64,000 bases of DNA from Gammaproteobacteria bacterium (lineage in GTDB: Bacteria; Pseudomonadota; Gammaproteobacteria; UBA4575), in contig CBDEUS010000001.1 of the NCBI GenBank assembly GCA_965243395.1, positions 768,001 through 832,000 on the forward strand, read 5' to 3'. Both the position numbers and the translations under genes were made by a program. Of the stretch, positions 21,135 to 26,605 are shown one piece after another (position 1 is the first letter of the stretch; each line of letters begins with the position of its first letter). The notes beneath the pieces were generated by a model, which ran no database searches, was not told the DNA's origin, and saw only the letters and a program-made list of their open reading frames with translations.

Positions 21135-22736
21135 ATGATGTCTCTTTCGCTGAACTGGCAGAACATTGCTTTGTCAGTGATAGTATGTGCATCTATAATT
21201 ATATTAATATATGCAATTCGCAAGCTATTGCAGCTAAGAGAGATTCGCAAAGAAAATAAAAAACTTAATCTGCTTACTTATCTTTCGCCTATATTACTTT
21301 TTTTCTTTATTTATTTATTTTACTTATCGCTCACACAAACATTAGAACCTATTTATTATTTCGTAGTGATCTCTGCATTTATCACTGCAGTGTTTGTGAG
21401 TTTTGCTATACAAACGCACTATGAAACGGCCGTTTCATTAACTAAATCAAAAGCGCTAGAACATTACTATGCTACGCATGATGATTTAACCGGATTGCCT
21501 AACCTAGGTTTTTTTAATGATCAACTTGAAAAAACGTTAGGAGTATCGCGCAGAGAAGACGATGAATTTGCACTGCTCTTTATCGGGTTAAATCGTTTCA
21601 AAGTGATTAACGAAACATTGGGTTATTTTGTGGGTGATGCTATTTTAAGTGAAATTGCAAACCGTATTCGTTCAGCGCTGAGAAAAACAGATTTAATTGC
21701 AAGATTAGGCGGAGATGAGTTTGCGGTACTTATTAATCCAGTATCAGCTCAGGGCCACATACATACCATTTCTAAAAATATTGCAGAATCCATTCAGGAA
21801 CCTTTGGCGGTGGAAGGCAAACCCACTGATGTGGGCGTTTCTATTGGTGTAGCGATTTATCCTAAGCATGCAAATAACAGTATTGAGCTGATTGAAAAAG
21901 CGCGTAATGCCATGATGGCATCTGAAAGATACGGGCGATCCGTGTTTATTTATGATGAAAATGCGGTTGATAACCAGATTGAAGACATCCAAATTATTGG
22001 CATGTTGCAACGTGCAATTCAAAAAGAACAACTCCTTGTTCTTTATCAACCTCAAGTACGATTAAGCGATGAAAAAGTAATTTCAGCCGAAGCTTTAATT
22101 CGATGGCAACATCCAAATTATGGATTACTCGACCCGGGTAGATTTATACCTTATGCTGAAAAGGCTGGCCTGATATTTGAAATTAATCTTTGGTTGCTTA
22201 AAAAAATCGTTGCATTGCTAGAAAACTGGCATAAGAAAAATCTTCTACTACCTATTGCATTTAATATCACTGCCAATGGGTTTTTGAACAAAGATTTTCA
22301 ACGTGAGCTTAATGCACAGCTTAAAGATCATCTGTGGTTAGCAAAAAACCTCAAAATTGAACTTACAGAAACATCCAGTATTGATCACGTCGAGGAAATT
22401 CATGAATCCATGCTTAATTATAAAAAGCGCGGCCTGAGTTTCAGCTTAGATGATTATGGAACCAAACATGCATCACTCGAGTATTTAAAGCGCTTGCCGT
22501 TTGACGAATTAAAAATTGACCAATCTTTTATGGTCAATGCTGCAACCGATGAAGACAGTAAAGCTATTATTCAACATGCGCAAGAAATTGCACGGCAATT
22601 GAAACTTTCTACCACAGCCGAAGGCATTGAAAATGAAGAGGTCTTAAAAATTGCAAAACAGGCTGGAATCAATAACGGTCAAGGGTATCATTTTAATTCT
22701 GCACTTGATGTGCATGCAATTGAGAAAATAATTTGA
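21135..22736 (+). CDS. membrane-anchored GGDEF-EAL protein, probable c-di-GMP phosphodiesterase
   Basis: Three N-terminal hydrophobic segments, RLGGDEF, and EAL motifs EALIRW, ELTE, DDYGT, KIDQSF, AEGIE, QGY. Confidence 0.92.
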   Translation: MMSLSLNWQNIALSVIVCASIIILIYAIRKLLQLREIRKENKKLNLLTYLSPILLFFFIYLFYLSLTQTLEPIYYFVVISAFITAVFVSFAIQTHYETAVSLTKSKALEHYYATHDDLTGLPNLGFFNDQLEKTLGVSRREDDEFALLFIGLNRFKVINETLGYFVGDAILSEIANRIRSALRKTDLIARLGGDEFAVLINPVSAQGHIHTISKNIAESIQEPLAVEGKPTDVGVSIGVAIYPKHANNSIELIEKARNAMMASERYGRSVFIYDENAVDNQIEDIQIIGMLQRAIQKEQLLVLYQPQVRLSDEKVISAEALIRWQHPNYGLLDPGRFIPYAEKAGLIFEINLWLLKKIVALLENWHKKNLLLPIAFNITANGFLNKDFQRELNAQLKDHLWLAKNLKIELTETSSIDHVEEIHESMLNYKKRGLSFSLDDYGTKHASLEYLKRLPFDELKIDQSFMVNAATDEDSKAIIQHAQEIARQLKLSTTAEGIENEEVLKIAKQAGINNGQGYHFNSALDVHAIEKII

Positions 22737-23817: not shown

Positions 23818-24615
23818 CTAGGAATAGATCGATAACCAATATCCACCCCAAATTATTAGAGCTACTCCCGTTATCATTCTAGTAGCCGTAGGCGAAATAG
23901 GTAAAACTTTTTCAAGTAATACAAAAATTGTTATGAGTATGACCCAAAGCATATTCATGACACCCACTGCAAACAAAATTAGCATTAATGCCCAACAACA
24001 ACCGACGCAAAATAGTCCGTGATGTAAGCCCATTTGTAATGCACCCATGTTTCCATCCTTCCATGCAGTCATAATAAATCCAATGGGTGTTCGGCATTGG
24101 TTTAGGCATACATCCTTAAGGGGTGTGAATTGATAAATTCCCGCGACAATTAGTATGCCTCCGCTTAACAAATAACTGCGGCTGTCCATCATAGGATCAA
24201 GCAAACCTCTTTCATGCAATGGCCATTGAATAAGGCTCACCACAATACTAAATACCCCCCAAGCCAATAGGTAACCTAATAAAAATAACCACGTAGGCGC
24301 ATAAGGTAACTGTTTTAGTTTTTTACTTTTGTTCACTGTAGCGAACATCGTAACCATAGGAACAACAGTGGGCGTCATCATGGCGACCATCATGGTGAAC
24401 CACATAAAAAACAGCATGAAAAAGTCATAACCGGTCCAAGGTCTTGTTCCGCTACGTGGAGGCATCCACATTTCTACCAAGTGCATGTTTTGCATGGCCC
24501 AGGCCATATAAAACATATAGGCCCAACCTGCTGCCGCCACTAAAAATAAGCCAGTAAGAATTATTTTTTTATCTTTATGACTCAATTGGCCAGATATTGC
24601 CGTATTATTAGTCAT
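23818..24615 (-). CDS. DUF2182 predicted metal-binding integral membrane protein
   Basis: MWFTMMVAMMTP, YQFTPLKDVCLNQCR, FCVGCCWALM. Confidence 0.9.
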   Translation of the reverse strand: MTNNTAISGQLSHKDKKIILTGLFLVAAAGWAYMFYMAWAMQNMHLVEMWMPPRSGTRPWTGYDFFMLFFMWFTMMVAMMTPTVVPMVTMFATVNKSKKLKQLPYAPTWLFLLGYLLAWGVFSIVVSLIQWPLHERGLLDPMMDSRSYLLSGGILIVAGIYQFTPLKDVCLNQCRTPIGFIMTAWKDGNMGALQMGLHHGLFCVGCCWALMLILFAVGVMNMLWVILITIFVLLEKVLPISPTATRMITGVALIIWGGYWLSIYS

Positions 24616-24687
24616 AATTTATAGAGAGTTTCTTAAGCTTTTATATATAATGATTATTATCCATTATTACTAGAGTAGGGTACGTAC

Positions 24688-25293
24688 ATGGCAATTTCAA
24701 ACTGGAAAGTTGAAGGAAAATATTTTGAATCATGTAATTGTGAAAATTTATGTCCATGCATTTTATTAAAAGACCCTACTGAAGGCTTTTGTGAAGCTAT
24801 GGTGGGTTGGGAAATTGAAAAAGGTCATTGTGAAGACGTATCTTTGGATGGAGTTAAAGTTGGTGTTTGGCTGCATGCTCCGGGCAACTTAACTGAAGGT
24901 AACTGGAAACTTGCCTTATATGTGGATGAAAGTGCAAGTGAAGAACAGTTTAATGCAGTTTGTTCATTATGGAGCGGTGAAGGCGGTGGTCATTTAGGTG
25001 TAATAGCAGGTCTTGTTGGGGAAGTTATGGGCGCAGAGAAAGCCAAGATTTCATTTGAATATAGTGATAATAAAAAACATTTAGTCATTGAAGGCGTGGG
25101 TGAGAACGAAATGGAACCCATGGAAGGAGCTGATGGCAGGAATGTGATTGTGACGGACCCACCATTAGCAGTTGCACCTAATAATCCAATTACGGTACAT
25201 GTTTCTACTAACGCACACTATGATGGCCACGGGCACACTTGGAAGCAAAGTGGTAAAGCTGGATTAGCGTCACCGTTTCAATACGGACCTTAA
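24688..25293 (+). CDS. DUF1326 Cys-rich predicted metal-binding protein
   Basis: W..EGKYFESCNCENLCPC...PTEGFC and PGNLTEGNWKLALYVDE. Confidence 0.9.
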   Translation: MAISNWKVEGKYFESCNCENLCPCILLKDPTEGFCEAMVGWEIEKGHCEDVSLDGVKVGVWLHAPGNLTEGNWKLALYVDESASEEQFNAVCSLWSGEGGGHLGVIAGLVGEVMGAEKAKISFEYSDNKKHLVIEGVGENEMEPMEGADGRNVIVTDPPLAVAPNNPITVHVSTNAHYDGHGHTWKQSGKAGLASPFQYGP

Positions 25294-25403
25294 ATTTCAA
25301 ACTTAACTTTTGATTGGCTAAGAGAATTTTCTTAGGGAATTGCTTTGCTTAAAAAAAGGAAGCAAGAGGAACAAGAAAGACAATAGAAAGTGGAGTTGGA
25401 AAA

Positions 25404-25516
25404 GAGGTTATCTATCTGGCAATCCCGCTGTCTTAGAATTCTTGCTTCCTTAGACCGGTAATTTTGCGCCCCTAGTTTTCACTAGGTTTGCCTTTTTCAG
25501 TAAGTTTTATTACCTC
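25404..25516 (-). ncRNA. c-di-GMP-I (GEMM) riboswitch aptamer
   Basis: Minus strand ctgaaaaaGGCAAAcctagt-GAAA-actaggGGCGCAAAattaCCGGtCTAAggaagcaagaattcTAAGAcaGCGGgattgCcag matches the Vc2-type consensus (GNRA tetraloop stem, receptor, closing stem). The closing helix extends gaggtaat/ataacctc. Confidence 0.92.
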
Positions 25517-25650
25517 AAATTATTAATACACTACAAACTCTATCAAATTATATTAATTATGTGTATGGGGTTTACTTACGCATCTATTTATTTCAGTGAG
25601 TTACATTTGTTAAAACATGTTAATTAAATATAATCTTAATGAGCGGAGCT

Positions 25651-26544
25651 TTAAGGTATTGAATCTGTCTCGGTAAGAGTTGCTTCCGGTGTTTGTTGAA
25701 CTTTCTTTTCTCTCAGGATAATAATGCCTGCAACAATAATAAGCAGTGCTCCAGAAATTGTTATTAATGTCACCAACTCACCCCAGAATACCCAACCAAT
25801 AATTGCGGCAAATAAAATGGAAGAGTAGGTAAAAGGAGCAATTCTACTTGCGGGAGCAAGAATGTAGGATTTTGTAAGTAATAGTTGTCCTACGGTGCCG
25901 AAAGTACCCAATAGTAATAAAATAAACCATTCTTTATTGGTCGGGTTTTGCCAAAACCAAAATAATGGAAAAGCGGACACGGTTAAACTGATTAATCCAA
26001 AATAAAAAACAATTCTGCTTGTTGGCTCGCTAGCAGACATTCTTCTAATCGTAACTTTTGCAAGTGCAGCCAATGCACCGCCTAACAAGCCCACAAGTGA
26101 TGCAATATGGATAGTGCCGGTTGGTTTCAAGACTAGAATCACACCCAAAAAACCAATCATGACTGCCATGATCACTCTTAATGATATGTATTCGCTTAAC
26201 CATATAAAAGCAATGATAGGTATGAAAAGTGGAGCGCTGATTTTCAATAGCATCGCATCAGCGAGTGGCAGCTCAGCTAATGCATAAAAAAAACAATACA
26301 TCGCTGACACACCGGCTAAAGATCGTAAGAAATGCCAACGGATGTTGTCGGTTTTAAGTGTGTTAATTCCTAATTTAAATATAAGTGGTAATAAAACGAT
26401 TAATCCAAACAAGTTTCGAAAGAATACAACATTTTGACTAGGAAGATTGTCAGAAAGCAGTTTTACTAATGAGCCCATACCTACAAAGCATAGTTCTGCA
26501 AGCATTGCAAAAATGCAGCCAAGAATTAAATTATTTTTTTGCAT
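25651..26544 (-). CDS. DMT (EamA) family transporter
   Basis: Ten-TM pattern; VVFFRNLFG, APLFIPIIAFIWLSE, IAPFTYSSILFAAIIG..WGE. Start taken at MQKNN. Confidence 0.9.
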   Translation of the reverse strand: MQKNNLILGCIFAMLAELCFVGMGSLVKLLSDNLPSQNVVFFRNLFGLIVLLPLIFKLGINTLKTDNIRWHFLRSLAGVSAMYCFFYALAELPLADAMLLKISAPLFIPIIAFIWLSEYISLRVIMAVMIGFLGVILVLKPTGTIHIASLVGLLGGALAALAKVTIRRMSASEPTSRIVFYFGLISLTVSAFPLFWFWQNPTNKEWFILLLLGTFGTVGQLLLTKSYILAPASRIAPFTYSSILFAAIIGWVFWGELVTLITISGALLIIVAGIIILREKKVQQTPEATLTETDSIP

Positions 26545-26581
26545 AAAAAAAAAGCCCTTACAGTATTTGCACTGTAAGGGC
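26545..26581 (-). terminator. intrinsic terminator of acnA
   Basis: gcccttacagt-gcaaat-actgtaagggc followed by T9 on the minus strand. Confidence 0.85.
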
Positions 26582-26605
26582 ATATTCAAAGTTAGTTGCA
26601 AAAGT

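Follow-up and report, generated by a model that had tools for sequence, protein, structure and literature searches.

A c-di-GMP-I aptamer without a downstream gene and its family of putative two-state RNAs in uncultured Gammaproteobacteria

Our results indicate that a 64,000-nucleotide (nt) stretch of DNA from a Gammaproteobacteria bacterium (GTDB lineage UBA4575; GenBank assembly GCA_965243395.1, contig CBDEUS010000001.1, positions 768,001 to 832,000; hereafter the window) carries on its minus strand a genuine riboswitch aptamer for bis-(3′-5′)-cyclic dimeric guanosine monophosphate (c-di-GMP). This c-di-GMP-I (GEMM-I) aptamer is predicted to bind c-di-GMP, and comparison with its relatives suggests that it is the sensor of a free-standing, conserved two-state RNA in which a pyrimidine-rich tail can fold back on the aptamer and compete with it. 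The element, which an initial annotation made from the letters of the window had described as an orphan riboswitch ending in a self-complementary tail, belongs to a family of self-contained RNAs, each with a c-di-GMP-I aptamer at its centre, that is restricted to one clade of uncultured Gammaproteobacteria. For the window copy we propose, at a probability of roughly 45%, a self-contained two-state riboswitch RNA that probably works as a c-di-GMP-relieved terminator with antisense read-through into the convergent DUF1326 gene.

The aptamer is the sole Rfam match in the window. With 83.3 bits (E 6.4e-15) against a gathering score of 35 bits, RF01051 (c-di-GMP-I) aligns along all 87 model positions (1-87) to 25415-25502 on the minus strand, and a search of the source genome (G000; 2.58 Mb in 2 contigs) reproduced the result; this covariance-model search, which the initial annotation had proposed as a check, bears out its full minus-strand GEMM aptamer. 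The genome holds four GEMM-I aptamers, and the window copy scores highest of the four. Across 19 aligned family sequences, the 27 pairs of the aptamer are formed in 97.3% of cells, five pairs have changed on both sides, and none of 500 shuffles reached the observed pairing; the basal helix P1 (helix 1), with six pairs, is formed in 93.8% of cells and has no changes on both sides. The sequence and the Rfam alignment place a GAAA loop of the GNRA type and a receptor motif, CUAAG...UAAG, in the expected hairpins, and the nucleotide equivalent to G20, the role of which in the Vc2 aptamer is described in the available part of PMC6140456, is indeed the G that had been read there (25492, the first G of GGCAAAC), which points to c-di-GMP as the ligand in preference to cyclic GMP-AMP. 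The aptamer is followed, again as first noted, by a pyrimidine-rich tail (25351-25414, 64 nt; A8 C18 G4 T34) that ends in T7 at 25351-25357. The parts of the RNA are as follows.

25415-25502, minus strand: c-di-GMP-I (GEMM-I) aptamer, 83.3 bits over the full Rfam model, with covariation
25466-25491, minus strand: GAAA-tetraloop hairpin, within the aptamer
25421-25463, minus strand: receptor hairpin, within the aptamer
25498-25503, minus strand: 5′ strand of P1 (UUACUG), partner 25412-25418 (CAG-a-UAG)
25440-25451, minus strand: loop arm AAGGAAGCAAGA, comprising the tetraloop-receptor AAG, the 5′ strand of the apical stem and the apical loop
25368-25411, minus strand: C/U-rich, G-poor spacer of 44 nt, apical region of the competing hairpin
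25356-25367, minus strand: tail arm UCUUGCUUCCUU, 3′ arm of the competing helix, present in the minimum-free-energy (MFE) and centroid folds
25351-25357, minus strand: U7 tract adjoining or overlapping the helix, candidate intrinsic termination point

The tail arm tcttgcttcctt (25356-25367) and the stretch aaggaagcaaga (25440-25451) are the perfect 12-nt complements that the initial annotation had pointed out. What it had called a variable loop is, by the Rfam alignment, not inert: it unites the receptor AAG with the apical stem's 5′ strand and the apical loop. A perfect stem of at least 12 bp occurred in 5 of 1000 dinucleotide shuffles of 25351-25516, and both the MFE and the centroid fold of 25330-25530 contain the 12-bp helix. 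Conservation of the complementarity in relatives was the test set beforehand, and the loop/tail helix is kept, with compensatory changes, in all 24 full-length copies of the family. Eight of its pairs (GGAAGCAA with UUGCUUCC) are invariant across these copies; the ninth is G-C in 22 and A-U in 2 (both copies of genome G019), and the tenth is G-C in 18, A-U in 2 (the window copy and G007_A), G-U in 2 (G006 and G015_A) and mismatched in 2 (G009_A and G003_A). The conserved core of the helix is 10 bp, and the two extra A-U pairs that extend it to 12 bp in the window are not conserved (5/19 and 10/19 sequences). When the partner strand is slid by 1-3 columns, pairing falls from 89.5% to 33-58%.

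Long loop/tail pairing is rare outside the family. We compared 103 metagenome aptamers with the same core and no less than 200 nt of downstream sequence. Six family members and one unrelated locus have, downstream, a perfect complement to the loop of at least 10 nt; in the other 96 the longest complement is 8 nt or less, no longer than in mismatched loop/downstream pairs. Because these 96 lie at a chance-like length, we reject loop/tail pairing as a general trait of GEMM-I aptamers. In the unrelated locus (L278, on a metagenome contig), a 10-nt sequence ~155 nt downstream is perfectly complementary to the receptor-hairpin loop, possibly a second, independent instance of the loop/tail design.

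The fold that contains this helix dominates thermodynamically. It is the MFE structure in 24/24 copies and lies 10.3-22.7 kcal/mol below the aptamer-constrained fold in every one of them, as computed without tertiary and ligand energies; in the window copy the gap is 14.9 kcal/mol, which answers the comparison of constrained and unconstrained folding suggested at the outset. In the predicted competing fold of the 24 copies, the tetraloop hairpin survives while the receptor hairpin is dismantled, its 5′ half pairing with the tail arm and its 3′ strand, together with the 3′ strand of P1, pairing with the nucleotides that immediately precede this arm. The apex of the competing hairpin is formed by the C/U-rich stretch, which is unpaired in both folds. 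Between the 24 nt before the tail arm and the 3′ strands with which they pair, complementarity exceeds that of 95% of mononucleotide shuffles in 19/24 copies, the five exceptions including both copies of G000, and subgroups build this inner pairing with different sequences and in different registers (GGGAUU/AAUCC in G007_A, GGAAUU/AAUUCC in G009_A). These folds suggest that the tail supplies the 3′ arm of an extended anti-aptamer hairpin, the formation of which would take the receptor hairpin apart. Of the self-complementary tail first described, the complementarity thus stands, and the reading as a mere self-complementary end does not, given that the helix is part of the larger hairpin in all 24 MFE structures. 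Docking of the tetraloop on its receptor is one of two long-range contacts in the folded Vc2 aptamer according to the available part of PMC11705072, and because the tail arm covers receptor nucleotides, we infer by analogy that the competing helix and the ligand-bound aptamer exclude each other.

The family is sharply delimited. A custom covariance model built from 19 copies (R1), used together with BLAST searches of the relatives, gives 139-185 bits to the 24 full-length copies and at most 75 bits to every other GEMM-I element. Copies are present in 18 of the 56 searched genomes of one bacterial family, five of which carry two. By genus, they occur in 15/15 genomes of g1 (including G000), 2/2 of g9, 1/1 of g6 (two copies) and 1/1 of g2 (two copies), and the R1 search found none in 36 genomes of g3 (13), g7 (16), g5 (3), g10 (2), g4 (1) and g11 (1). 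The window element is paralogue A of G000; paralogue B, with a similar tail, lies at C2:394249-394404 on the minus strand. A scan of the genomes of 185,579 species with a loop-containing 17-mer returned 101 stretches, 14 of which have a GEMM context, and the titles among the matches listed for these are Gammaproteobacteria or Pseudomonadota metagenome-assembled genomes; we dismissed the remaining stretches as chance because the pattern is too short. A stricter aptamer-core pattern returned 107 stretches from metagenomes, 7 of them with the family loop. Within the family, G005 (L141) and G006 (L149) have A rather than G at the G20-equivalent position (GAGCAAAC); A at this position marks GEMM-Ib aptamers, which bind cyclic GMP-AMP or are bispecific. 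The tetraloop reads UAAA instead of GAAA in G007_B, G010 and G013. A different GEMM-I element of G000, at C1:262222-262344 (L003; relatives L024 and L034), contrasts with the orphan family as a conventional riboswitch: its receptor hairpin contains a long insert, and a hairpin located downstream spans a gene's start codon.

The surroundings of the window copy contain the following features.

24688-25293, plus strand: DUF1326 gene, convergent with the RNA (PF07040, E 1.1e-48)
25651-26601, minus strand: EamA transporter gene, upstream, ending 148 nt before the aptamer (PF00892, E 1.9e-31)
25241-25250, minus strand: second tail-arm-like motif CUUUGCUUCC (mRNA strand GGAAGCAAAG), inside the 3′ end of DUF1326

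No sense open reading frame (ORF) of at least 40 amino acids lies between the tail and DUF1326, and the sense frames in the 450 nt downstream have only 27-43 codons and run antisense inside DUF1326, so that both the orphan status of the element and the convergent DUF1326 as its next gene were read correctly. The same holds for the family, which has no conserved downstream gene. The next downstream ORF of at least 80 amino acids is convergent in 8 copies and on the same strand in 13, and the contig ends first in 3; of the same-strand ORFs, 10/13 start 247-374 nt after the tail arm and one at 695 nt. In just 2/24 copies, G003_A (38 nt) and G019_b (135 nt), does a sense ORF of this length lie within 150 nt. 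The neighbouring genes vary between copies, and the absence of a conserved downstream sense ORF is what distinguishes a stand-alone RNA from a gene leader. In the closest relative, G012, the EamA and DUF1326 genes are separated by 2.2 kb that contain three other ORFs and lack a GEMM match, and the window copy thus occupies this site in G000 only. The initial annotation had named a sense gene in relatives, lost from this genome, as an outcome that would count against it; the G012 site has no riboswitch-led gene, and such a loss is unsupported.

The motif GGAAGCAAAG on the mRNA strand of DUF1326 matches the partner of the tail arm. It is made by synonymous codons in G000 alone, relatives G012, G002 and G001 reading GGAAACAATC or GGAATCAATC, and is possibly due to chance. 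PpoB2/DUF2182 (minus strand) and DUF1326 (plus strand) are divergent and 72 bp apart (23818-25293); PpoB2 shares the strand of the RNA, and very long read-through would reach it. A gene for a GGDEF-EAL protein (c-di-GMP synthesis or breakdown) lies at 21135-22736 on the plus strand, 2.6 kb from the RNA.

Two further features mark the region from which the RNA could be transcribed.

25547-25552, minus strand: candidate promoter box TATAAT, aligned to the TACACT/TATACT box of other copies
25519-25546, minus strand: promoter-scan match TTGATA-16-AATAAT, 10/12 consensus matches

A transcription start around 25512-25540 is implied. Upstream of P1, by about 60-100 nt, 23/24 copies have the sequence TGTGA (TGTGC in G006)-N6-mostly TCAA, and ~21 nt after it, ~37 nt before P1, a TACACT- or TATACT-like box. 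In class II CRP-type promoters the site is centred near -41.5. The TGTGA-N6-TCAA box would be centred there too, an arrangement that argues for a regulated promoter belonging to the RNA itself.

We propose that the window copy switches as follows. In the aptamer fold, the GAAA-tetraloop hairpin would dock on the receptor hairpin and leave the ~65-nt pyrimidine tail single-stranded. In the competing fold, the final 10-12 nt would capture three parts of the receptor hairpin (apical loop, 5′ strand and receptor AAG), while more proximal bases of the tail would pair with the 3′ strands of this hairpin and of P1, giving one long hairpin overall. When c-di-GMP is absent, this hairpin would form behind the polymerase, which would terminate near 25351 and release an RNA of ~160-190 nt; such termination is expected because the basal helix runs straight into U7, and the long-range stem is the only one able to precede U7 because the pyrimidine-only tail has no local hairpin partner. 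If c-di-GMP were bound while the 44-nt spacer is being synthesized, the receptor hairpin would be locked and the terminator arm left without a partner, and the polymerase would read on, antisense into the convergent DUF1326 gene, making the RNA an "ON" switch without an ORF of its own. In agreement with this model, a stable stem (the 12-bp or 10-bp helix) leads into a U tract as in intrinsic terminators, and both parts are most developed in the window copy. Its helix, at 12 bp, is the longest. In the 12 nt beyond the arm, T runs reach a length of 7 in this copy, 5 in G006 (starting 4 nt later) and at most 4 in the other 22 copies. The same switching logic is found in the pilM GEMM-Ib ON switch of Geobacter, in which terminator and aptamer are mutually exclusive and the ligand prevents termination (available part of PMC9262584); pilM, however, precedes genes and has a compact terminator near the aptamer, whereas the window RNA has arms separated by 72 nt and no coding sequence after it, and presumably binds c-di-GMP. 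Among the other copies, G003_B has a canonical terminator (10 bp and U7) that ends ~88 nt after the tail arm, and the same scan found no such terminator in G008. Just after U7 in the window copy (25345-25365, minus strand), AAGCAA can pair with UUGCUU of the tail arm to form a small hairpin whose loop contains the U run and which would hold the tail arm in a read-through transcript; G007_A has GAAGCA 14 nt after the arm, and the AAGCAA feature is otherwise not conserved.

Several observations weigh against this model. The hairpin is not compact, as a consensus scan for terminators (loop 3-8 nt) reports no minus-strand site, and 72 nt between the helix arms is unusual for a terminator. U7 is present in 1/24 copies, and for this reason termination cannot be the conserved output of the family, which could instead lie in the accessibility of the 3′ half, in stability or in pairing with a convergent transcript. 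In the window copy the complementarity of the inner anti-aptamer part is weak, with 23% of shuffles equalling it, and the whole 201-nt region (25330-25530) folds no better than shuffles (z = 0.08), so that overall stability is no evidence. About two independent events, in closely related genomes, underlie the compensatory GC-to-AU changes; these support the helix and are statistically not strong. The window copy alone lacks the TGTGA-N6-TCAA box. The DUF1326 neighbourhood is specific to G000, making any antisense role recent, and we infer the promoter, the 3′ end, the read-through and any effect on DUF1326 alike from the DNA sequence.

Some of these points would equally fit a window copy that is a decaying or neutral duplicate, with the B copy beside katG as the functional member and the A copy as a young insertion that keeps its structure by age alone: the box and its spacing to the -10 element are missing in this copy of the 24, its inner complementarity is weak, and its site is occupied in G000 only. 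We nevertheless hold this to be highly improbable, since the supposed relic has the top Rfam score among the four aptamers of its genome, has the longer helix, has its compensatory A-U pair in common with G007_A, a copy flanked by other genes, and has gained U7 and has a TATAAT box.

The features that make the RNA look like a gene in its own right, free-standing among variable neighbours, also suit a trans-acting riboregulator, as first proposed: an RNA of ~165-190 nt in which c-di-GMP would gate the tail arm and the C/U stretch, and free pyrimidines would pair with purine-rich ribosome-binding sites (RBSs), perhaps via Hfq. Hfq is encoded in the genome, and the 3′ end, a helix and then a U tail, has the form of the usual Hfq-binding module. 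The spacer has C12 and G2 in the window copy and C12-19 and G1-5 across the family, with C exceeding G in 24/24 copies and an invariant AAC-C core, and both helix 8-mers are invariant though covariation would be possible, which suggests a further sequence-specific partner. The trxB RBSs of the clade read AAGGAA, complementary to UUCCUU of the tail. Set against this, GGAAGCAA is found at an RBS only at trxB, and there in only 2/25 orthologues examined (G000 and G012), on which ground we rejected trxB as a target; a 6-nt anti-Shine-Dalgarno match is non-specific; and the C/U stretch is single-stranded in both folds, leaving no obvious gating. Genome-wide, the two 9-mers searched have 17 and 13 perfect matches, the intergenic ones of the first being the two RNAs themselves and the rest lying inside ORFs, and perfect-match searches found no conserved mRNA target. 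On balance we regard regulation in trans as possible and rather unlikely.

Pairing of a purine-rich 5′ leader (GAGG/GAGGAG) with the C/U spacer was considered and rejected, as it beats 95% of shuffles in 1/24 copies only. In most copies the apical loop contains CAAGGAU, which we take to resemble the CsrA consensus, and CsrA is encoded; the GGA of this motif is absent in the window copy, G007_A, G009_A, G003_A and both G019 copies.

The C-rich, G-poor tail could instead be a Rho-loading or nuclease-entry site, the two folds deciding whether the transcript is terminated or decays, much as ligand binding in Vc2 shields the RNA upstream. The tail composition given above (C18 and G4 over 64 nt), the excess of C over G in every spacer and the presence of Rho in the genome are consistent with this, as is the Vc2 riboswitch, which controls the stability of small RNAs that end just after the aptamer (available part of 10.1101/617340). 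We consider such a platform very unlikely because the stretch is short for Rho loading, nothing downstream in the sense direction needs protection from read-through, and the invariant sequence of the helix is left unexplained. The Vc2-derived small RNAs of Vibrio cholerae resemble the window RNA in placing the aptamer in a small RNA, and their abundance depends on c-di-GMP; they differ, as far as the available part of the same source goes, in that the Vc2 aptamer is at the 3′ end, the ends reportedly do not come from termination, and tfoY follows, whereas the window aptamer is followed by a 65-nt tail and U7 and no gene.

A gene-less aptamer might also serve to buffer or store c-di-GMP, as proposed for merRNA of Bdellovibrio bacteriovorus, with the competing hairpin as a built-in release or auto-inhibition. 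merRNA offers a precedent in that it is a non-coding RNA with a c-di-GMP riboswitch, has no conserved downstream ORF and has been proposed to be a sponge (available part of PMC3627812). G000 has two such RNAs, 18 genomes have one or two each, and the competing fold is stable enough to contend with the binding of ligand. A buffer, however, would require very high expression, the role of merRNA is itself only a proposal, and neither the invariant 8 bp of the helix nor the conservation of the spacer would be required of a sponge; we give this explanation little credence. Compared by description only, merRNA is also different in being 445 nt long, massively expressed and known from a single lineage, and a conserved loop/tail helix is not described in the available part of PMC3627812.

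The window RNA matches the RF01051/Vc2 type in the full aptamer, the GAAA-tetraloop hairpin, the receptor hairpin and the G at the G20-equivalent position (available part of PMC6140456); it differs in having no downstream gene and in its competing strand, which targets the apical loop of the receptor hairpin and the receptor from ~75 nt away and not the 3′ strand of P1 alone. Bc1 of Bacillus thuringiensis likewise has a long, structurally ambiguous platform after its GEMM-I aptamer, in contrast with two compact terminators and downstream genes in Bc1 (available part of PMC11218506). Literature searches for an orphan c-di-GMP riboswitch small RNA, a tetraloop-receptor platform and a catalase-linked c-di-GMP riboswitch, of incomplete coverage, found no account of this family or design. 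Riboswitches that control antisense or other non-coding RNAs include the S-box antisense RNA of the Clostridium acetobutylicum ubiG operon and the B12-controlled AspocR and EutX/Rli55; we know of no such example controlled by a c-di-GMP-I aptamer. In these RNAs, as in our model, ligand-controlled termination sets how far a non-coding or antisense transcript extends, but they respond to other classes of ligand. One riboswitch-controlled antisense case is cited in the merRNA paper (available part of PMC3627812).

The genes next to the other copies point to a possible physiological setting. A gene for peroxide detoxification adjoins 12/24 copies (catalase in 5, katG-type peroxidase in 5 and AhpC/redoxin in 2; loci L136-L160), a count in which the related genomes are not independent and the type of enzyme differs between loci, and one further copy adjoins a LysR regulator. 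The B copy of G000 (L002, L028, L144, L197) lies 274 nt upstream of a same-strand katG-type peroxidase gene and has a divergent DUF454 gene on its other side. In Vibrio cholerae, c-di-GMP is reportedly linked to catalase production. In at least eight loci the tail arm is followed, 48-151 nt away, by a convergent gene with an AGGAGG RBS for a conserved hydrophobic peptide of 22-25 amino acids (MYD.IYL...VIWSN.K.D), the ORF having 24-25 codons in these loci. No Pfam or NCBIfam family matched this peptide below E = 0.04. In G000 its gene lies beyond katG, and there are two further paralogues. The peptide genes are located as follows.

L136:1358-1432, L137:350-421, L138:1736-1807, L141:208-282, L139:1709-1783, L143:1352-1426 and L151:576-650: peptide gene in relatives
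C2:391590-391664, C2:659620-659685 and C1:521271-521336: peptide gene in G000

The layout of RNA and peptide resembles a type I toxin-antitoxin pair, making it tempting to speculate on a new class of free-standing RNAs with CRP-type promoters, in which c-di-GMP chooses between a sensor and an anti-sensor fold and hence sets the pairing of the 3′ half, with an antisense or antitoxin-like link to peroxide defence and a toxin-like peptide; the window copy would then be a derived member in which the hairpin has become a terminator. We consider this broader scheme quite unlikely as a whole.

To our knowledge, almost all known c-di-GMP riboswitches are gene leaders. The 24 comparable copies, with a two-state design open to mutation, therefore make the purpose of a gene-less c-di-GMP riboswitch directly testable, in a field where the only free-standing precedent that we found in the literature is merRNA, the function of which is still a proposal (available part of PMC3627812). 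If our model is correct, a platform that dismantles the tetraloop-receptor hairpin from its apical loop would be an unusual route for a GEMM-I switch. Finally, if the speculation on the neighbouring genes proves true, this RNA family would couple biofilm signalling to peroxide defence and to a peptide resembling type I toxins.

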